Assembly: GCA_943350765.1 (NCBI GenBank)
Contig: CALRAJ010000001.1
Location: 191,066-255,065 of the forward strand
Length of the DNA stretch: 64,000 nt
Direction of reading: 5' to 3'
From: Candidatus Tayloriibacteriota bacterium
GTDB lineage: Bacteria; Patescibacteriota; Minisyncoccia; Phycocordibacterales; PALSA-1337
In this document: piece by piece, positions 7,987 to 59,069 of the stretch
How the letters are laid out: each line of letters opens with the position of its first letter
Position numbering within the stretch: position 1 is the stretch's first letter
Made by a program: the position numbers and the translations under genes
The notes under the pieces: generated by a model
Databases searched by the model: none
What the model was told of the DNA's origin: nothing
Seen by the model: only the letters and a program-made list of their open reading frames with translations

Positions 7987-9893
7987 TATTTCATTACAAC
8001 TGTTTCAGTATCCGACACGGTCAAGAAACCTTTAATTCGACTCGAAAATCGGAAATAAAGGTACCCAACCACAACAAGGGCAACTCCTAGCACCATAAAT
8101 GCTGCAATACGATAAACCTGATCTAGAAGCCAAATGTCATAAAGGAATGTCTTGAGTACCGTGATCCCAAAAACCACAGTCGCACAGATACGCAACACCG
8201 AGGTTTTTGAAATAATTCCAAGTACGAGTGCTACCAGTGCGTAGGCGATAAAGAATACTGATATTGCGAGGCTAGTAGATTGGATGATATTGGCAGTTGT
8301 CGAAAGATAACGGAAACCATCAACGATTTCAAAAACACCTGCACACAAAACAAGAATATTTGCTATCGCCATAAATACTGAGGCCTTGTGTAAATCCTCC
8401 CTATCCTTTGATGACACATAGAATGCGTGGAAAACATAAGCAATAAAGACGGCGAGGATTGTCGCTATTGCAAACACGATAAATCGCTCGTTGAATATGA
8501 GGATAAAATCTGCTTTTGCAAGGTTTGTATCAAATGCAAATAGACGAAATATACCGAGAGCAAAAATAGGGATCGAGTATGAGACTATTCTCGAACGAAG
8601 CAAGAGTGCCACCCATGCGATAATAGCACTTTCCACAAACCACGAAATAGTGATCCAGAAACCATTGAACTGAATAGGGAAAACGAGAGTGAGGAATAGT
8701 ACCGCCATTCCTGCTGGCAAATAGACGAGGGCTTTTGTCTCTCTTTTTGCATACGAGCCGACGAGCGTAATGAGTGTGTAGACCGCCGTTAGAAAAAGTG
8801 GCAAAAGACCTATGTAGGCAGAGTACTCAGGGTTTAGAATAGAATAGCTTACTGACATATAGATTATTCCTGTCAGCAACATTAAAGCAAAGTCGCCATT
8901 GTTTGGCTTTTTATCATTAAAATAATAGAAGACCAATGACGAACCAGTAAATATCGCCCAAAGTAGTGTAAAGTAGGCTTCGGTCATGAATAGCTTACTC
9001 GTGTCATAATTTCCAAAAAACCACCCTCCTACGAGTAGCAAGGTACCCACCGCTGTACCCCAGACCAGCTGTTTCCAATTTTTAAAGTAAGCAAGCACAA
9101 AAAGTCCCAGATCAAGTAGTGCAACATAAGTCAGAAGTCCAATATCATTTACCACATTTGTCGAAAGTAGGACGGGTGTTAAAAAACCACCGAGAAGTGC
9201 TATACCAGCTATTGCAATAGAGTCATATCTAACCGAAAGTACGATAGAGAAAATAGTGATAATAATCATTCCAAGAAAAGCCGGTACCTGATCGATTTTA
9301 TGATAAAAACCAAAAGCACTATAGAGAGATAGGTAGAGGATCGCGATACCGCCACCCGTCAAGTAAAATGCGTACTTTGGATATTTTCTATAGAACCATT
9401 CTCCCGCACCAATAAAGCCGAGACCGATAATCAAGCCGAGAATAATACGCCCTGTCTCGCCGATGAGGTTGTTATCAAAAGAGAACTTGATGAAAAATCC
9501 AACGCCAAAAAGTATCGCGATTATACCTGCCAACATGAGCCACCTTGTATTAAAAGCAAACTCCGTAGCAGTCGCAGTAGTATTGACAGAGGTTTTTACA
9601 CTACTGTATGTAGGTGAAGCCTGAGGTATGCTTTTAGTTGGGATATTTACTGTGTCAGTCTGATAGTGATGTGTATCCTGAGATGTTTCAGTATGCGAGG
9701 TCTGGATAGGGCTACTGTTAGTAGGAGTACTTGAACCGTAAAGCTCATCTTTTGTAATAATGCCTTTCTGGATGAGAAGTGAGGCGAGACGGTAAGATAT
9801 TTGGCTAGGTTTTTCTGCAATATTCTGATGCTGATTTTTTGAAACAAAATACCATGCGACACAGATAATTATGATAATGAATATTAATTCCAT
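7986..9893 (-). CDS. Large polytopic membrane protein, DUF2339-like
   Basis: 635 aa. An S/T-rich N-terminal region is followed by more than 12 predicted TM helices. It is operonic with the signal-peptide protein at 6628-7986. Confidence 0.45.
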   Translation of the reverse strand: MELIFIIIIICVAWYFVSKNQHQNIAEKPSQISYRLASLLIQKGIITKDELYGSSTPTNSSPIQTSHTETSQDTHHYQTDTVNIPTKSIPQASPTYSSVKTSVNTTATATEFAFNTRWLMLAGIIAILFGVGFFIKFSFDNNLIGETGRIILGLIIGLGFIGAGEWFYRKYPKYAFYLTGGGIAILYLSLYSAFGFYHKIDQVPAFLGMIIITIFSIVLSVRYDSIAIAGIALLGGFLTPVLLSTNVVNDIGLLTYVALLDLGLFVLAYFKNWKQLVWGTAVGTLLLVGGWFFGNYDTSKLFMTEAYFTLLWAIFTGSSLVFYYFNDKKPNNGDFALMLLTGIIYMSVSYSILNPEYSAYIGLLPLFLTAVYTLITLVGSYAKRETKALVYLPAGMAVLFLTLVFPIQFNGFWITISWFVESAIIAWVALLLRSRIVSYSIPIFALGIFRLFAFDTNLAKADFILIFNERFIVFAIATILAVFIAYVFHAFYVSSKDREDLHKASVFMAIANILVLCAGVFEIVDGFRYLSTTANIIQSTSLAISVFFIAYALVALVLGIISKTSVLRICATVVFGITVLKTFLYDIWLLDQVYRIAAFMVLGVALVVVGYLYFRFSSRIKGFLTVSDTETVVMK

Positions 9894-10100
9894 AAATAGT
9901 ATTACTTAGCGTGATTAACGCTGGCTATTATTATTGATATGTCTATGAGTATACTGTATCTTGGGGGATTTAAGAAGTATGGCTAAAGGGTTATGAACAA
10001 TGAAAACGCCAGCAACAACCATATACGCCATTGCGTATATAAGGGAAATACATCTCAGCTATAGCTGAAATGTATTTCTTGTCTAGTGTCAAAATCAATG

Positions 10101-10134
10101 TTGCCCACGATTTTCTACTGAAAATCGTGGGCAA
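10101..10134 (-). terminator. Long hairpin (TTGCCCACGATTTTC-TACT-GAAAATCGTGGGCAA) downstream of 10311-10616; member of the TTTCTACTGAAA hairpin family
   Basis: Perfect 15-bp stem. The TTTCTACTGAAA core recurs in other hairpins in this window. Confidence 0.45.
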
Positions 10135-10140
10135 AAACCT

Positions 10141-10300
10141 ACCCAAACAAGCCGTAAAGGCTCGAGGAGTGGAGACGACGAAGATACAGGAGCCACATAT
10201 CGGTGGCGGGAGTACTGAGCTCAGTAGAGCGAATGTGACGGGCTAGCAAGACGCGTTACAAGCACGGTACACCGTTGAGCCTTTCCGCCAAACCACGCCC
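10141..10300. repeat. Dispersed intergenic repeat, family 1 copy A
   Basis: GAAGATACAGGAGCCACATATCGGTGGCGGGAGTACTGAGCTCAGTAGAGCGAATGTGACGG...GTTACAAGCACGG..GTTGAGCC. Near-identical copies lie at 54815-54945 (same orientation) and 27236-27350 (inverted). Related units lie at 20560-20720 and 51285-51425. Confidence 0.7.
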
Positions 10301-10310
10301 CTACTCAGGC

Positions 10311-10616
10311 TTACTTCCCTCTTTTTTCGTAGTATACATATGTACCAAAATCACCAATCTGCTTGATCAGCTTTTCCTGCTCCAGCTCCTCTAGATACCT
10401 CGTCGCAGTCGCATCTGACACCCCGCAGAGCTTTTGCACATCATCATTTTTCACCCGCCCATCCGCCACCAAATCAAAATACTCCAAAATCTTCCTCTTC
10501 TGCTCCGCTTTCTCCCCCGCCTGCCTCGCTATCAAACTTCCCACTCCATATTTCATCCTCCATATCAAAAGACCCACCACCAGCAGCACCAAGACTAAAA
10601 TTAAAATTGTGTTCAT
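10311..10616 (-). CDS. Small membrane-anchored helix-turn-helix protein
   Basis: N-terminal TM helix (ILILVLVLLVVGLLIW) and a C-terminal winged-HTH-like segment (VQKLCGVSDATATRYLEELEQEKLIKQIG). Confidence 0.45.
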   Translation of the reverse strand: MNTILILVLVLLVVGLLIWRMKYGVGSLIARQAGEKAEQKRKILEYFDLVADGRVKNDDVQKLCGVSDATATRYLEELEQEKLIKQIGDFGTYVYYEKRGK

Positions 10617-10649
10617 AGGGTTAGTATAACATTTTTATGGTTGTTCTAG

Positions 10650-10844
10650 CTACAAATCAAATACCTCCTCAATAGAACCCCTAATCGAATCGCGTATATC
10701 CTTTGCCAGCATTTCATCATATTCAACCATAGATAAGACTGACTGAACCTGCTCAACTAATAAACTTTTTACTCCAATATCTTTAGCCACCTCCCTAACC
10801 TCGTCTTCGGTTATTGTGAATCTTATAGATTTTATTTTTTCCAT
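10650..10844 (-). CDS. Small hypothetical protein (64 aa)
   Basis: Compact acidic ORF between the HTH protein and the DpnI-like gene. No motif recognised. Confidence 0.3.
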   Translation of the reverse strand: MEKIKSIRFTITEDEVREVAKDIGVKSLLVEQVQSVLSMVEYDEMLAKDIRDSIRGSIEEVFDL

Positions 10845-10878
10845 ACCTGATCTTTGATCGAATCAGAAAGAAAGTCAA

Positions 10879-11643
10879 TTAGGATAGTTGATAAGTCCCA
10901 TTTCCGGTAAAAGTAAGGTAGTTCCTATCACGAAGAAACTGTAGTTGCTGGCGAATTTTATCTTTAATATGCTTGTTTTCTGGATGAATCTTCTGAAGCT
11001 CAGATTCAAATTCATACACATCAGCCAGAATAAATTCTTTTTTATTTATCGCATCAATACAATTCATAATATCCAAAATCCAACCCTTTGCATCGGCTTT
11101 TGTAACTTTCTTGAGAAATACAGTCTTTTGCCACTTATCTAATACTTCTTTTTTGTCTATCTCCCTACCGTCTTCCACATAAAAGATTTGCCCCGCTTTA
11201 GGAATTTTTGAAAAGAGAATGTTTGAACCCACCCAGCCCGCCCTTCGGGCAGTTTTTTTTAAAGGATTTCTTTTCTCGATAATTTCAGAAATGAAAAAGT
11301 GCTTCGGCACCACAAAGAAATCATTCACAGACAAAGATTCCGAGTATCCCATGAAAAAAAAGTTCGGTTTAGTCTTAGAGTTTATTCTTTCAATCATTTT
11401 AGAATACGCTCCGGCAGGCACAGTCTTTCCAATCTTTCCTTTCTTCGACTTTAGCTCAAAATCTTCACTGCACTTTTTGCAATAAAAATCTGCAACTGGT
11501 TTATTATTCGTATAGTTATAAATCTGGTCTCCACAACCTGGGCAAAAAATAAAACTCTCTACCCATACCTCAGTCATCACACGAATCTTTTGTGATTGGC
11601 TTGTATAGTTATTTGCAAGTTGTGTGTCGAATGATGATTCCAT
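10879..11643 (-). CDS. DpnI / Dam-replacing-protein (DRP) family methyl-directed type IIM restriction endonuclease-like protein
   Basis: N-terminal ...YTSQSQKIRVMTEVWVESFIFCPGCGDQIYNYTNNKPVADFYCKKCSEDFELKSKKGK... resembles the DpnI/DRP N-terminal region (SQK-R-TE-WV, CPxCG, ADFYC-xC-E-FELKSKKG). The C-terminal region is compatible with a winged-helix domain. Recognition is from memory of the family. Confidence 0.55.
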   Translation of the reverse strand: MESSFDTQLANNYTSQSQKIRVMTEVWVESFIFCPGCGDQIYNYTNNKPVADFYCKKCSEDFELKSKKGKIGKTVPAGAYSKMIERINSKTKPNFFFMGYSESLSVNDFFVVPKHFFISEIIEKRNPLKKTARRAGWVGSNILFSKIPKAGQIFYVEDGREIDKKEVLDKWQKTVFLKKVTKADAKGWILDIMNCIDAINKKEFILADVYEFESELQKIHPENKHIKDKIRQQLQFLRDRNYLTFTGNGTYQLS

Positions 11644-11674
11644 TTTTTTATTTTATTTGGGTAAAAACTTTGAT

Positions 11675-12808
11675 TTATTCATTCGTAAAAAGCTCCAAGT
11701 ACTTTTTGTACTCAAAATCACGACCGTAGGTAGTAAGTCGGTCACGCTGTACAAGAATGCCGATACGCACAAGCTCGCTCACCAATGTATTTGCAGCAGG
11801 ACGAGAAAGTCCTGTCCACTCTTCCACCTTTCGCACATTCACAATAGGAAGTTTATATAACCCCCGAAGCACAGTGAGACCATTTTTTGCTCGACTACTG
11901 CCAAGAGCCATGACTTTGGCCATATCTTTTTCTCTGAGAGCAGTAATGGCACGAGATGTTACCACCGCTTGATCAGCGACAGTTGCAACTCCTTCCAAAA
12001 AGAAATTAATCCATGGAATAATTTCGCCTTTATTATGGTACCCTTCGAGCAAATCGAAGTATGCCTCACGATTCCTTCTAAAGAAAGCGGAAAGATATAG
12101 AACCGGTCGTTCCAAAATCCCTTGTTGACAGAGATAGAAGGTAACGAGCAACCGTCCGACTCGCCCATTACCATCAAGAAAGGGGTGAATAGTTTCAAAT
12201 TGAGCATGCATAAGAGCTGTTTTAATTAATGGTGGTATATCAATATCAGCATGCAAAAACTTTTCAAAATCGTCGAGGGTACGATTCATTTCATGTACTG
12301 GCGGAGGAACAAACCGAGCTGTCGCAGGAGAACCTCCACCAATCCAATTTTGGGTACGGCGAAATTCACCAGGAGTCTTCCCTAGTGCATCACCAGTACC
12401 CTCTAATAATGTTTTGTGCACTTCCTGAATAAGTCTAAGTGAAAGTGGTAATGATTCCAGTCGACGCAGACCTTGGTTCATTGCATCTATATAATGTAAA
12501 ATTCGGTCGACATCTTTCGGTAAATCTTTTGTGATTTCAATCTCCGCACGAATAGCATCACTCATAGTTGCTTGTGTACCCTCAATCTCACTCGAAAGTG
12601 CCGCTTCTTTGCGGGCATACATAAATATAAACAAATCTAGATCGGGAAGTAGCTGAGTAATTCCATCAAGCTTACCCACAGATAAAGCTGCTCGAGCATG
12701 AAGCATATGAGTAAGTTTCAAGAAAATAGGCATTTCCACAAATGGAAACGGTCCGGGGATAAAAGCTTTGTAGCCTTGGGGTTGTTGTATAAATTGACCT
12801 ATTTTCAT
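11675..12808 (-). CDS. Fic/Doc (Fido) family protein with a C-terminal winged HTH
   Basis: Canonical Fic motif HPFLDGNGRVGR. The N-terminal inhibitory motif SSEIEG ([ST]xxxE[GN]) is typical of class II Fic. The C-terminal region is wHTH-like. Confidence 0.8.
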   Translation of the reverse strand: MKIGQFIQQPQGYKAFIPGPFPFVEMPIFLKLTHMLHARAALSVGKLDGITQLLPDLDLFIFMYARKEAALSSEIEGTQATMSDAIRAEIEITKDLPKDVDRILHYIDAMNQGLRRLESLPLSLRLIQEVHKTLLEGTGDALGKTPGEFRRTQNWIGGGSPATARFVPPPVHEMNRTLDDFEKFLHADIDIPPLIKTALMHAQFETIHPFLDGNGRVGRLLVTFYLCQQGILERPVLYLSAFFRRNREAYFDLLEGYHNKGEIIPWINFFLEGVATVADQAVVTSRAITALREKDMAKVMALGSSRAKNGLTVLRGLYKLPIVNVRKVEEWTGLSRPAANTLVSELVRIGILVQRDRLTTYGRDFEYKKYLELFTNE

Positions 12809-12878
12809 ATCTTTACATCATCTATGTAGATGTAAAGATATTAGCATAATACTTAACATCACACAAGGAGATGTAAAG
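12809..12878. promoter_or_regulatory. Palindromic operator-like site at the Fic start (TCTTTACATC..GATGTAAAGA plus a third GATGTAAAG half-site)
   Basis: A 10-bp inverted repeat lies immediately upstream of the Fic ATG (12808). An extra direct half-site lies about 35 nt further upstream. Confidence 0.4.
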
Positions 12879-13061
12879 CCTAACTTGTGGATAAGACATG
12901 GTTTGCCAGCAGTGCATGTATATACCCTTTATTTAAGCCATATTTTGGTCTAAAGGCTCAACGGTACCCGTTGAGCCTTTGAAGCTATAAACGCTCTAAA
13001 AATAGCGAAATTGCTTTGCCAGACATTATGCTATAATAATCGCACCTATAAAAATACAAAT

Positions 13062-14057
13062 ATGTTCAACAAACCTTTTGATTTTGTGGCGGTGGGAGAT
13101 ATTACGACCGATGCATTTATAAAAATAAAAGACGCACATCTGACTTGTGCTATCAACAACACTAAATGCGAAATCTGCCTGAAATTTGCCGACAAAGTAC
13201 CATTTGAGTCTGTTACCGAAGTCAAAGCTGTCGGTAACAGTGCCAATGCTTCCGTATGTGCCTCACGACTCGGTATTAGTTCAGCCCTAGTCAGTGATAT
13301 AGGGCAAGATGAAAATGGTAAAAATTGTCTCACTGAGCTTTCAAAAAATAAAGTCTCGACAAAATACATTTCGACTCATCGAAACATGGCCACCAACTAT
13401 CATTATGTCCTCTGGTACCAAGATGAGCGGACTATCCTAGTCAACCACAAAGAGTATCCATACAGTCTACCGAAAATAGTGACACCAAAGTGGGTATACC
13501 TGAGCTCACTCGCTTCAAACTCCCTCGACTACCATCTCGAAATCATAGCCTTTCTCAAAACACATCCAGAGACCAAGCTCGCCTTTCAGCCCGGGACTTT
13601 CCAGATGAAACTTGGCAAAGAAAAGCTTGCCGAGCTCTATGCCCTGTCAGAAGTATTTGTTTGTAATGTAGAAGAATCACAACGCATCCTAGGGACATCA
13701 GAAACCAATATCAAAAATCTACTCTCCAGCATGCGTGCCATCGGCCCGAAAATAGTACTCATTACCGATGGCCCAAAAGGTGCCTACATGGACGACGGCA
13801 CGACGCAGTACTTTATGCCCATCTACCCAGACCCAAAACCACCTTTTGAGAGGACTGGCTGTGGCGATGCCTTTGCCTCGACTTTTGTCACTGCCCTCGC
13901 ACTCGGCAAGACCCCTCTCGAGGCACTGATGTGGGCACCGATAAATCCGATGTCTGTAGTACAATATGTAGGTGCTCAGGAAGGGCTTCTCGATAGGATA
14001 ATACTAGAAAAGCTCCTCGCCGAAGCACCAGCCGATTACAAACCGAAAGTTATTTAA
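13062..14057 (+). CDS. PfkB-family carbohydrate kinase (ribokinase-like)
   Basis: N-terminal FDFVAVGDITTD and the C-terminal GCGDAFASTF PfkB signature. The start was set at MFNKPFDF. Confidence 0.75.
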   Translation: MFNKPFDFVAVGDITTDAFIKIKDAHLTCAINNTKCEICLKFADKVPFESVTEVKAVGNSANASVCASRLGISSALVSDIGQDENGKNCLTELSKNKVSTKYISTHRNMATNYHYVLWYQDERTILVNHKEYPYSLPKIVTPKWVYLSSLASNSLDYHLEIIAFLKTHPETKLAFQPGTFQMKLGKEKLAELYALSEVFVCNVEESQRILGTSETNIKNLLSSMRAIGPKIVLITDGPKGAYMDDGTTQYFMPIYPDPKPPFERTGCGDAFASTFVTALALGKTPLEALMWAPINPMSVVQYVGAQEGLLDRIILEKLLAEAPADYKPKVI

Positions 14058-20390: not shown

Positions 20391-20559
20391 CTTTTTTCAC
20401 ACTTTAGATCACTTTTAACAGTCAAATCTCTAAAATATGGCTCTAGATATAGCTATTCTCCAGACCTCCAAAATAGGTATGGTCGACAAAAATTGTATAA
20501 AATACCATCTATAAGGTTGCTTCGCTCTATTGGCCGATACCGAGGAAGATACCTCGGTA

Positions 20560-20720
20560 CGCAAGAGCCATACTGGTGGCGAAAGTCCTGAGCCTAGCAG
20601 GGCGTAGGGTAGGAGACACGACGGTGGCGGGCATGCTGAGCTCAGTAGAGCGTAGTACTCGATTTATATAGTCGCTCCGCTCCTTATAAATCGGTGCTTG
20701 CCCTACGCTTTGGTAAGCTC
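20560..20720. repeat. Dispersed intergenic repeat, family 1, composite copy D (tandem and inverted units)
   Basis: AGAGCCATACTGGTGGCGAAAGTCCTGAGCCTAGCAGGGCGTAGGGTA ... GGTGGCGGGCATGCTGAGCTCAGTAGAGCGTAGTACTCG ... TGCCCTACGCTTTGGTAAGCTCAGGACTTTCGGTGCC. Confidence 0.6.
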
Positions 20721-27350: not shown

Positions 27351-27984
27351 CTTGAGCCGTTCAAATGGCTATACAGAGCCGTTTTATGAAGATTGGTAAG
27401 GACGAGTTTAAGGTGTGATTTGCCTCAATGGCTCAACCACACTGGTTGAGCCATTGAGGCAAAATACGGCATTATTTGAGGCTCACTTTCCATCCTCTAT
27501 ATATGTGGATAATAGAATTGACAGTAAAACTAAAAGTAGTACAGTAAACATTGGCATCTCCCCTAAATCCGATCACTTCAGTGAATAGGGTGAGGAGGTG
27601 GAGTTTGGAACAAACATTGGAGGTATTATGGAAGTAAAGCCCCTTAGTCTCATTGAACAAGTGTTGATTGAGGATCCCAAAAACATTGGTATCCTGTTCT
27701 ATTTTGAGAATTTGCTCGAAGAGAGTATCAGACTCACGGGTGGTTCCTGAAAAAACTTTTAACTCGCAAGCTATTTGGTAACTCGAATGGCTTTTTTTTA
27801 TATATAATTTTGCATGGTGTATTTGAACTAAAGTTTGCACATAAAGCCAAACAAGAGTAATATATACTACATTCAAAGATTGTTATGGCTACCAACCATA
27901 AATCCGCCAAAAGTGGATGACAAAATCCTAATTTGAAACAAATAATACCCTCTCCAATTAACGCTTGGACACTTATCTCATCAA

Positions 27985-44240: not shown

Positions 44241-44425
44241 AATAAAGTTTAGTCTCGTCCTATCCCCGTAGCAAGCTATACCCTCGGACTACCTCGGCGG
44301 GGTATTAGGCGAGACATCTGGGTAAACTTTGTTGTATAGGTGTCGGCTCCGCCGACTTCATCCTCATTCTTGCGGATTCATCCCCGCGGCAAGCCGTCGG
44401 GGTATTCTCCACAATTACAATAAAC
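44241..44425 (+). ncRNA. Conserved structured element of about 185 nt, copy 1 (unknown class)
   Basis: About 93% identical to 55016-55199 in the same orientation. Internal complementary segments include AAAGTTTAG/TAAACTTTG, GTCTCGTCC/GGCGAGAC, CCCCG/CGGGG and GTCGG/CCGAC. No ORF. Confidence 0.4.
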
Positions 44426-51284: not shown

Positions 51285-51425
51285 GAGCGGGAGCCAAGAG
51301 CCATACTGGTGGCGAAAGTCCTGAGCTTAGCAAAGCGTAGGGCAAGAGCCATACAGGAGCCATACTGGTGGCGGGAGTACTAAAGCTCACCAGAGCGTAG
51401 TACTGGTAGCGAAGATGCTGAGTTT
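51285..51425. repeat. Dispersed intergenic repeat, family 1, tandem-unit copy E
   Basis: Repeated units AGAGCCATACTGGTGGCG[AG][AG]AGT.CTGAGCT.AGCA.AGCGTAG, between two and three units. Confidence 0.6.
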
Positions 51426-54325: not shown

Positions 54326-54814
54326 AGGAACACACTATAACACAATTTTAATTAGGAATGAAATAATAAATACAAAAGGCGTCCGTGTGTGGACACGAAC
54401 GCCTGAGTGAGAACAGCCAAAATGGCCGTGAACGAAACGAATTTGCAACGAAATACTCAAAGCCCAGGGGCCTTTACCCTGTCCTGGCTTCCACAAACCA
54501 GGGGCTTGAGCCATTTCGCTGCTCCCAAAAAACAGGATGGAGTGATGCTCATAATACCAGCACTTTCAACCTGCTCGATCCGCAACTGATAATACATGCC
54601 CACAAGGAGCTCGTAGAAGAATCTCATAGCTTTCTTTCTGCGACCGACATACTTTATATCATACTGCATCACAAAATACAAGTATCTAAAAAAGAACTTG
54701 ATATTTTCAGTCCAAAGGCTAAACAATGTATGTTTGAGCCTTTGGGTCGTTTTTACCCCGAAATCTCATTACTGCCTATTCTGTAGGGTGCCTCTACAAA
54801 GCCATTTGAACGGC

Positions 54815-54945
54815 TCAAGGAGCGTAGGCGACGAAGATACAGGAGCCATATCGGTGGCGGGAGTAATGAGCTCAGCAGAGCGAATGTGACGGTCTAGTAG
54901 GATTCGTTACAAGCACAGGGCTGTTGAGCCGTTAGATTTTACCTA
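54815..54945. repeat. Dispersed intergenic repeat, family 1 copy C
   Basis: GACGAAGATACAGGAGCCATATCGGTGGCGGGAGTAATGAGCTCAGCAGAGCGAATGTGACGG..GTTACAAGCACAGGGCTGTTGAGCCGTTAG. Near-identical to copy A. Confidence 0.65.
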
Positions 54946-55015: not shown

Positions 55016-55199
55016 AATAAAGTTTAGCCTCGTCCTATCCCCGTAGCAAGCTATTCCCTCGGATTACCTCGGCGGGGTATTAGGCGAGACGACAGGGTAA
55101 ACTTTGTTGCAAGAGTGTCGGCTCCGCCGACCTCATCTTCATTCTTGCGGATTCATCCCCGCGGCAAGCCGTCGGGGTATTCTCCACAATTGCAATAAA
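55016..55199 (+). ncRNA. Conserved structured element of about 185 nt, copy 2 (unknown class)
   Basis: About 93% identical to 44241-44425. Substitutions cluster in predicted loop or bulge segments (for example ATCTGGG versus GACAGGG, and GTATAGG versus GCAAGAG). Confidence 0.4.
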
Positions 55200-58841: not shown

Positions 58842-59069
58842 ATACGATATCGAACACCTAGGTACCCTGAACTACGAAAATCTATTTAAAATATACACCT
58901 TCAAAGTATTTAGTGATTTGGGGTCATAAACTTAAACGGCTAAACACTAGCGTTTAGCCGTTTAAAGCTAGTACTAGAGCCATATTTTAGCCTAAAGGCT
59001 CAACGGCGCGCCGTTGAGCCTTTAAGCTATTTTCTCCTCCACCACCCACCTCCCCATAGAATCTAAAAA

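Follow-up and report, generated by a model that had tools for sequence, protein, structure and literature searches.

The closest described counterparts of the locus analyzed here, a four-gene block in the genome of Candidatus Tayloriibacteriota bacterium, are R.DpnI, Drg, SoFic and CccR. R.DpnI of Streptococcus pneumoniae is a type IIM restriction endonuclease with solved structures (PDB 4ESJ and 4KYW), and Drg, which the Neisseria ‘dam replacing gene’ encodes, is an orphan nuclease whose gene has less G+C than the host genome (PMC4269198). SoFic (Millman et al. 2022), represented by Shewanella SO_4266 and EcSofic of E. coli, is a validated single-gene defence system (10.1101/2022.05.11.491447; PMC12249575), and a 47-amino-acid (aa) antitoxin, AS1, is encoded downstream of the E. 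coli gene (PMC12249575). CccR of Yersinia pseudotuberculosis, a class II Fic protein with a helix-turn-helix (HTH) domain and an effector of the type VI secretion system (T6SS), binds as a dimer to inverted repeats near its own -35 and -10 boxes and represses transcription (PMC9755527). The stretch studied here (the window) comprises 64,000 nucleotides of contig CALRAJ010000001.1 (assembly GCA_943350765.1, positions 191,066 to 255,065), in which relatives of R.DpnI and SoFic are direct neighbours.

An open reading frame (ORF) check of the window returned four consecutive minus-strand genes at exactly the coordinates of the original prediction, a reading of the sequence alone that had described them as one accessory island (Table 1). 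In coordinate order they encode 101, 64, 254 and 377 aa and are separated by gaps of 33, 34 and 31 nt. Three assemblies (L001-L003; L numbers denote the loci compared) share this gene order, with proteins that are 100% identical, and the relatives reached through the neighbouring phosphoglycerate mutase gene are all Patescibacteria/Paceibacteria metagenome-assembled genomes, as anticipated when the host was first suggested to belong to the candidate phyla radiation (CPR). In our view, the region probably represents a small composite defence islet of two independent modules acquired in a Patescibacteria (Paceibacteria) genome. Both enzymes belong to already-known families, and the islet is in that respect an ordinary small defence island; new here are a locus found in three states, a conserved four-site operator in the CPR SoFic clade, and a small gene linked to DpnI.

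Table 1. Features of the four-gene block and its flanks, in window coordinates
Feature	Position	Strand	Remarks
Terminator-like hairpin, 15-bp stem	10101-10134	-	between TM-wHTH gene and DUF2339; resident, outside the insert
‘Family-1’ dispersed repeat	10141-10300	not assigned	~113-nt element (10164-10276) in the loop of a GGCTCAAC-type hairpin after TM-wHTH
Membrane-anchored winged-helix protein (TM-wHTH), 101 aa	10311-10616	-	N-terminal transmembrane helix, linker, winged HTH with invariant VSDATATRYL
Extended -10 box of TM-wHTH, TGTTATACT	10623-10631	-	6 nt upstream of ATG
Acidic three-helix protein, 64 aa	10650-10844	-	recurrent neighbour downstream of DpnI homologues
DpnI-like type IIM restriction endonuclease, 254 aa	10879-11643	-	PD-(D/E)XK domain with Zn site and C-terminal winged helix
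SoFic-type class II Fic AMP-transferase with C-terminal winged helix, 377 aa	11675-12808	-	Pfam, PADLOC, motifs
Operator O2 (putative)	12811-12837	-	CTTTACATC-N9-GATGTAAAG, between -10 box and Fic start codon
Fic promoter	12838-12866	-	-35 TTGTGT (12861-12866), 17-nt spacer, -10 TAATAT (12838-12843)
Operator O1 (putative)	12852-12878	-	CTTTACATC-N9-GATGTTAAG, brackets -35 hexamer
Perfect DnaA-box 9-mer, TTATCCACA	12886-12894	-	upstream of O1; significance uncertain
Dispersed hairpin repeat	12936-12988	not assigned	stem AAAGGCTCAACGG / CCGTTGAGCCTTT (12952-12980), between divergent Fic and PfkB promoters

Variable presence of the insert among relatives

Comparison with related genomes, the check proposed for an accessory island, shows the block to be variably present and distinguishes three states of the locus. 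In L005, whose mutase is 83% identical, DUF2339 and PfkB are separated by 115 bp, i.e. the site is empty. L174-L177 have PfkB, a 133-bp spacer, the TM-wHTH gene (90% identical) and DUF2339, and carry no Fic, DpnI or 64-aa gene, while the window carries all four genes. Nucleotide homology with L174 spans the TM-wHTH gene to 10617 and then returns at 13060, and homology with L005 returns at 13024, which together place the variable block at about 10640-13023 (~2.4 kb). Because the L174 homology covers the TM-wHTH gene, that gene is resident, and the insert consists of the Fic, DpnI and 64-aa genes only. The island as first drawn was accordingly right for these three genes, which vary among relatives, but one gene too large.

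The insert itself combines two modules with separate histories, Fic on one side and DpnI with the 64-aa gene on the other, which differ in G+C content (42% versus 36%). The values are 42.3% for the Fic gene and 35.9% for both the DpnI gene and the 64-aa gene in a window of 41.1%; the DpnI-like gene is in this respect comparable to Drg. Elsewhere DpnI with the 64-aa gene is found without Fic, and Fic is found without DpnI. Among 80 metagenomic loci sampled around DpnI homologues of 67-85% identity (L085-L164), L091 and L094 are the only ones with Fic next to DpnI. Homologues of Fic with 64-88% identity stand alone in unrelated contexts that include HicAB, an HsdR fragment, metabolic genes and a RadC-Dam fusion. 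A prophage origin of the insert was also considered and is not supported: relatives of DpnI and of TM-wHTH are absent from the viral contig collection, no phage genome contains a relative of TM-wHTH, and the search of viral sequences gave a single weak match for Fic.

The DpnI-like endonuclease and its small neighbour

The 254-aa protein matches the Pfam families DpnI (PF06044; 2.9e-74, 249.1 bits, cut-off 26.7) and DpnI_C (PF17726; 8.6e-32, 109.6 bits, cut-off 23), as well as the PADLOC model for methyl-directed type II enzymes, mREase_II (5e-105); it matches no PHROG family. It aligns to the solved R.DpnI (4ESJ) with 269 bits and 48% identity, and has the same two-domain architecture and the same length (254 aa). 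With functional roles taken from the R.DpnI studies, all 13 residues named there are kept (PMC3424567; PMC4117772). They include the catalytic E25, D52, E63 and K65 (E25, D53, E64 and K66 in R.DpnI), the zinc cysteines C34, C37, C55 and C58, which correspond to the two CXXC motifs, and L128, R134, W137 and G139 of the methyl-binding cleft (L129, R135, W138 and G140). Profile search, the match to the solved R.DpnI and residue comparison thus all agree with the DpnI/DRP identity proposed earlier. The predicted specificity is G(m6A)TC, and we read the protein as a probably active orphan nuclease directed at this site. No Dam homologue or remnant was found by tblastn within the 64-kb window, and no N6-methylase motif occurs in its ORFs. 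In contrast to R.DpnI and Drg, the enzyme is hosted by a Patescibacterium, and its site is neither a dam locus nor that of a DpnI/DpnII cassette. GATC is mildly depleted in the window (ratio 0.62), but relatives without DpnI show the same depletion (0.59-0.68), and we therefore rejected it as a signature of DpnI and give it no weight either way.

The downstream partner also differs from that of R.DpnI, as it is a 64-aa acidic protein (isoelectric point 4.5) with no Pfam match, including any DpnD-type family, and no PHROG or PADLOC family. Differences from the homologue in L088 fall at 15/16/29 by codon position, and the ORF is therefore truly coding. Homologues lie directly 3' of DpnI in L088 (65% identity) and in L105/L107 and L117 (43-46%); the gene travels with DpnI and not with Fic. 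An AlphaFold2 model has three helices with a confidence (pLDDT) of 76, and a search of the PDB with it gave no fold match (best E-value 0.95).

In the 80 DpnI loci, the slot 0-450 nt after DpnI is filled by unrelated small same-strand ORFs that are at times stacked. A 142-aa acidic protein occupies it in 27 loci, a 67-aa zinc ribbon in 21, a protein of ~52 aa in eight, a nucleotidyltransferase-like family in six and the 64-aa family in five; none of the small-protein families in this slot has a Pfam or PHROG family.

At least 10 of the same 80 loci (L105, L107, L111, L120, L128, L130, L133, L136, L140 and L146) have an ORF for a Dam-type (D12) methylase immediately upstream of DpnI; in L105 it spans 1835-2578 and DpnI starts at 2582. 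In five of these loci the ORF ends 17 aa past its DPPY motif and meets DpnI at an identical TAA-TTT-ATG junction, covering residues 2-196 of the 278 in EcDam and positions 1-198 of the 253 in the Pfam profile. In four diverged lineages (72-81% identity) this truncated 247-aa ORF is intact, with codon-position differences (for example 35/23/106) that indicate purifying selection. A truncated dam adjoining DpnI points to the incompatibility expected of an active DpnI enzyme, and instead of a dead remnant the truncated protein may represent a conserved partner of DpnI derived from Dam.

A SoFic-type Fic protein with a conserved four-site promoter

The 377-aa protein matches Fic_N (PF13784; 5.7e-22, 78 bits) and Fic (PF02661; 1.2e-19, 71.4 bits) in Pfam. 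Its match to the PADLOC SoFic model (PDLC03963; 1.5e-108, 361.5 bits) is full length, with residues 12-375 aligned to positions 5-359 of 361, and its best solved relatives are SoFic structures. The NCBIfam equivalog model NF046030 scores 160 bits against a cut-off of 550, hence the protein is not an equivalog of the Shewanella protein. The Fic motif HPFLDGNGRVGR (H208-PFLDGNGRVGR, residues 208-219) fits the canonical HxFx(D/E)GNGRxxR. The inhibitory motif SSEIEG occupies residues 72-77 of the same chain, on the N-terminal side of the Fic core, and S72, S73, I75, E76 and G77 are invariant in seven homologues while position 74 is E or Q. Because SSEIEG precedes the Fic motif, the protein belongs to class II, and the class assigned in the original prediction holds on both Pfam match and motif order. 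The single-gene class II layout with an SxxxEG helix, the canonical Fic motif and a winged helix at the C terminus are all shared with SoFic, and the domain order is that of CccR. The clade around this protein is large, with more than 8000 members across phyla (E < 1e-40, identity 64% or higher). Unlike the Sofic-AS1 pair, no small AS1-like ORF directly follows the Fic gene, as DpnI begins 31 nt past its stop codon.

Upstream of the Fic gene, a palindrome (ATATCTTTACATC-N9-GATGTAAAGATAT) abuts the ATG. This palindrome and a third half-site (12870-12878) had been noticed earlier, and both are real; a fourth half-site, GATGTTAAG at 12852-12860, had been overlooked. Read in gene direction, the region consists of CTTTACATC (12878-12870), TCC, TTGTGT, GATGTTAAG (12860-12852), N8 and TAATAT, followed by CTTTACATC (12837-12829), N9, GATGTAAAG (12819-12811), AT and the ATG. 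The four half-sites, CTT(T/A)ACATC, thus form two 27-bp inverted repeats. The pattern CTTWACATC-N9-GATGTWAAG has two matches in the window, both upstream of Fic, and none in 100 shuffles. The promoter is too weak to register in a scan for consensus promoters and was assigned by homology with TTGACA/TTGACT-N17-TAATAT of L167, L184, L186 and L091. Upstream of the Fic homologues in L166 (87% identity), L167 (79%), L171 (77%), L184 (69%), L186 (64%) and L091 (50%), these four sites are again found at about -70, -51, -29 and -10, with the promoter in the same place. Including the window, the layout is found in seven lineages that span 50-100% protein identity and have unrelated neighbours, and the half-site sequence itself is kept across the homologues as TT(T/A)ACAT.

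No regulator gene travels with these loci, which makes the winged helix of Fic itself the most economical candidate for the binding protein. In the alignment of homologues its putative recognition helix, SRPAAN, is nearly invariant (S335, R336 and A339 are invariant). By analogy to CccR, Fic would bind its own operators and repress its own promoter, and the autoregulation suggested earlier gains support from the conserved four-site promoter together with that precedent. The two arrangements differ in detail: CccR recognizes two 10-bp half-sites 26 bp apart, whereas here four 9-bp half-sites form two N9 inverted repeats ~41 bp apart. Such an operator is not mentioned in the SoFic reports (10.1101/2022.05.11.491447; PMC12249575). 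L166 and L091 also have the DnaA-box 9-mer in the corresponding position upstream of O1, while it is missing from L167, L171, L184 and L186; with two occurrences in the window, a number reached by 17 of 100 shuffles, it is not significant there.

Proposed function of the islet

In the model that we favour, about 2.4 kb (roughly 10640-13023) would have been acquired between the PfkB promoter and the resident TM-wHTH gene. One module would be the SoFic-type AMP-transferase, which would have brought its own promoter and operators. A Fic dimer may bind the four CTT(T/A)ACATC half-sites through its C-terminal winged helices, at O1 over the -35 box and at O2 between the -10 box and the ATG, and so repress its own transcription as in CccR. 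The N-terminal SxxxEG helix would hold the enzyme inactive until infection, upon which AMPylation of a host target could abort the infection. The other module would comprise the DpnI-type type IIM endonuclease followed by its putative 64-aa acidic partner. The endonuclease is predicted to cut incoming fully methylated G(m6A)TC, either in Dam-modified phage DNA or in the DNA of Dam+ bacteria, and would need no cognate methylase because the unmethylated GATC of the host is spared.

If correct, the comparison with the empty site documents how a reduced CPR genome gains defence genes as small modular pieces, and orphan type IIM restriction and SoFic would be common currency in CPR organisms. The four-site operator offers a concrete, testable model for the restraint of a toxic enzyme in the very widespread SoFic clade. 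What is known of the DpnI and SoFic families themselves is unchanged.

The resident TM-wHTH gene

The 101-aa protein has a match to HTH_24 (3e-6) behind its hydrophobic N-terminus. The extended -10 box in front of the gene is its own promoter, with TGnTATACT also found 6-7 nt before the ATG of the homologous genes in L174, L085 and L190; its transcript probably has no leader. At E <= 1e-10 the family counts 1754 representatives (clusters at 50% identity, at least 1754), nearly all 95-115 aa long. One protein, P0264 (818 aa), has 11 tandem matches to the profile in a family that otherwise has one domain in ~100 aa. No member of the family was found in ~1.1 Mb of mutase-centred CPR loci. The possibility that TM-wHTH is a copy of the C-terminal domain of this Fic was rejected (E = 1.3).

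The gene is the last one on its strand after restriction or defence genes in six of eight contexts, a small sample. Of the six contexts reached through TM-wHTH homologues, four show it immediately behind restriction genes, namely those of a BsaWI-type restriction-modification cluster in L178, of a methylase/HNH/YgjP cluster in L180-183, of a type I restriction-modification system in L190 and of GmrSD in L191-193. The two contexts to which DpnI led place it after the Fic/DpnI block (in the window) and after a DpnI/TIR block (in L085). L174, with the gene on its own, and L194, with the gene inside a type IV pilus cluster, depart from this pattern; in L194 it is preceded by two small ORFs that resemble a toxin-antitoxin pair by eye but have no Pfam match. 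The genes downstream of it are different each time. One could propose that the family is the dedicated last gene of CPR restriction and defence islets and that Fic and DpnI were inserted here for that reason and not by chance, in which case the protein could serve as a membrane-tethered regulator or an exclusion factor, or mark an insertion hotspot; we regard this proposal as unlikely.

Alternative explanations

Several points weigh against the defence islet that we favour. SoFic proteins that have been tested by experiment are only distant relatives (best phmmer E ~1e-33 to solved SoFic/Fic chains), the evidence for the absence of Dam covers the 64-kb window of the genome, and Fic is a candidate for the operator-binding protein. 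To our knowledge, there is no known phage of this host. Fic could be a toxin-antitoxin-like or regulatory AMPylase instead of a defence gene, and O2 could be an RNA hairpin at the start codon. The former idea, in which Fic would be a housekeeping or toxin-antitoxin-type AMPylase and transcription factor or else, as CccR is, an exported effector, and would take no part in phage defence, draws on the architecture shared with CccR, a T6SS effector and regulator (PMC9755527), and on the enormous size and high conservation of the clade. The full-length match to the SoFic defence model argues against it, as do the neighbours of Fic elsewhere (HicAB, an HsdR fragment, restriction-modification genes) and its status here as an accessory gene beside a restriction enzyme at a locus with no secretion system nearby; we find it rather improbable, if the least so of the four alternatives weighed here. 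An RNA structure in place of a protein operator, either a 5' untranslated hairpin that occludes the start codon or a terminator, is favoured by the position of O2, which falls after the predicted -10 box and before the ATG and is therefore transcribed, with 13-bp perfect arms that would sequester the start region. However, O1 has the same sequence while it brackets the -35 box upstream of the transcript, the TT[T/A]ACAT half-sites are conserved across homologues with no compensatory change, and the ~20-bp phasing of the four sites suits protein binding on one face of the DNA, so that this explanation seems very unlikely to us.

The four genes could also form a single operon, with TM-wHTH in place of Fic as the regulator at the palindromes and the 64-aa protein as an AS1-like immunity or antitoxin partner of Fic. 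They do share a strand with gaps of 31-34 nt and no terminator in between, AS1 is encoded downstream of E. coli SoFic (PMC12249575), and TM-wHTH weakly resembles the SoFic C-terminal domain (PADLOC 2.8e-5). Yet the corresponding comparison with the Fic protein of this locus is not significant, TM-wHTH occurs alone at this site in L174-L177 with its own conserved, near-leaderless promoter, and the operators accompany Fic at loci with no TM-wHTH gene. The 64-aa gene, in turn, follows DpnI in four other loci, of which only L105 has a Fic-domain ORF, and that at a distance of ~2.6 kb downstream. We give the single operon little chance of being correct. Equally slight is the prospect that the DpnI-like enzyme serves to scavenge DNA, degrading for nucleotides what is taken up from Dam+ host bacteria. 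CPR organisms are known for symbiosis, limited nucleotide synthesis and DNA uptake, and an orphan methyl-directed nuclease with no partner methylase would fit such a role. Against it, the gene lies beside another defence gene and elsewhere accompanies TIR and Fic genes, which is the pattern of defence islands, and the protein carries no secretion or membrane signal. The composite defence islet is thus the reading that we retain.

Repeats, hairpins and other features of the window

The original prediction had the four genes bounded by repeats. Both repeats exist and flank the genes, but neither marks an end of the insert. The terminator-like hairpin beyond the TM-wHTH gene has a homologue in L174 with compensatory changes in the stem (GGCCCCCAGAATTTTC..GAAAATTCTGGGGGCC). 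Where the window has the family-1 element, L174 has a plain hairpin, AAAGGTTCAAC-GATTGCTG-GTTGAGCCTTT. Further copies of the family-1 repeat are found in the window at 54809-54916, 20555-20652 and 51288-51371; as a structured RNA it was rejected, since it folds no better than shuffled sequences (z = -0.07 and -0.99). An element of ~110 nt that contains the module GAGCCAYAYYGGTGGCGRRAGTNCTGAGCTYAGNARAGCG (10164-10276 and 54820-54920) is found within loops of GGCTCAAC-type hairpins whose stems differ. Modules related to GAGCCAYAYYGGTGGCGRRAGTNCTGAGCTYAGNARAGCG are present at 20555-20652 and 51288-51371, and the module also occurs in tandem; the element looks like a small hairpin-targeting or modular repeat. 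The hairpin repeat on the PfkB side has relatives with conserved flanks at 1031-1082, 27411-27463, 54695-54746 and 58975-59030. It lies inside the variable block and is found neither in the spacer between PfkB and TM-wHTH of L174 nor in L005.

Beyond those of the window (12936-12988 and its four relatives), distant Paceibacteria lineages also have terminator-like hairpins whose stem sequence is conserved (GGCTCAAC / GTTGAGCC and variants); they lie downstream of TM-wHTH genes in L085, L174, L178, L180, L190, L191 and L194. Sequence sharing among terminator stems is unusual. Rfam models had no match at gathering score across the window, with only sub-threshold chance matches in 9850-13100, and the tRNA search returned none.

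The tetranucleotide ACGT is nearly absent from the window, with 8 observed and 98 expected (ratio 0.08), and the ratios of CCGG, GGCC and GCGC are 0.42-0.49. ACGT is at normal frequency in sister lineages (0.94 in L174 and 1.10 in L005), and its scarcity suggests strong lineage-specific restriction pressure on this sequence. L178, from the same sample, combines the BsaWI-type restriction-modification cluster and a TM-wHTH paralogue with the same signature, and is probably part of the same genome as the window. A 184-nt direct repeat with 93% identity is also present at 44241-44424 and 55016-55199, the copies lying 10.8 kb apart.

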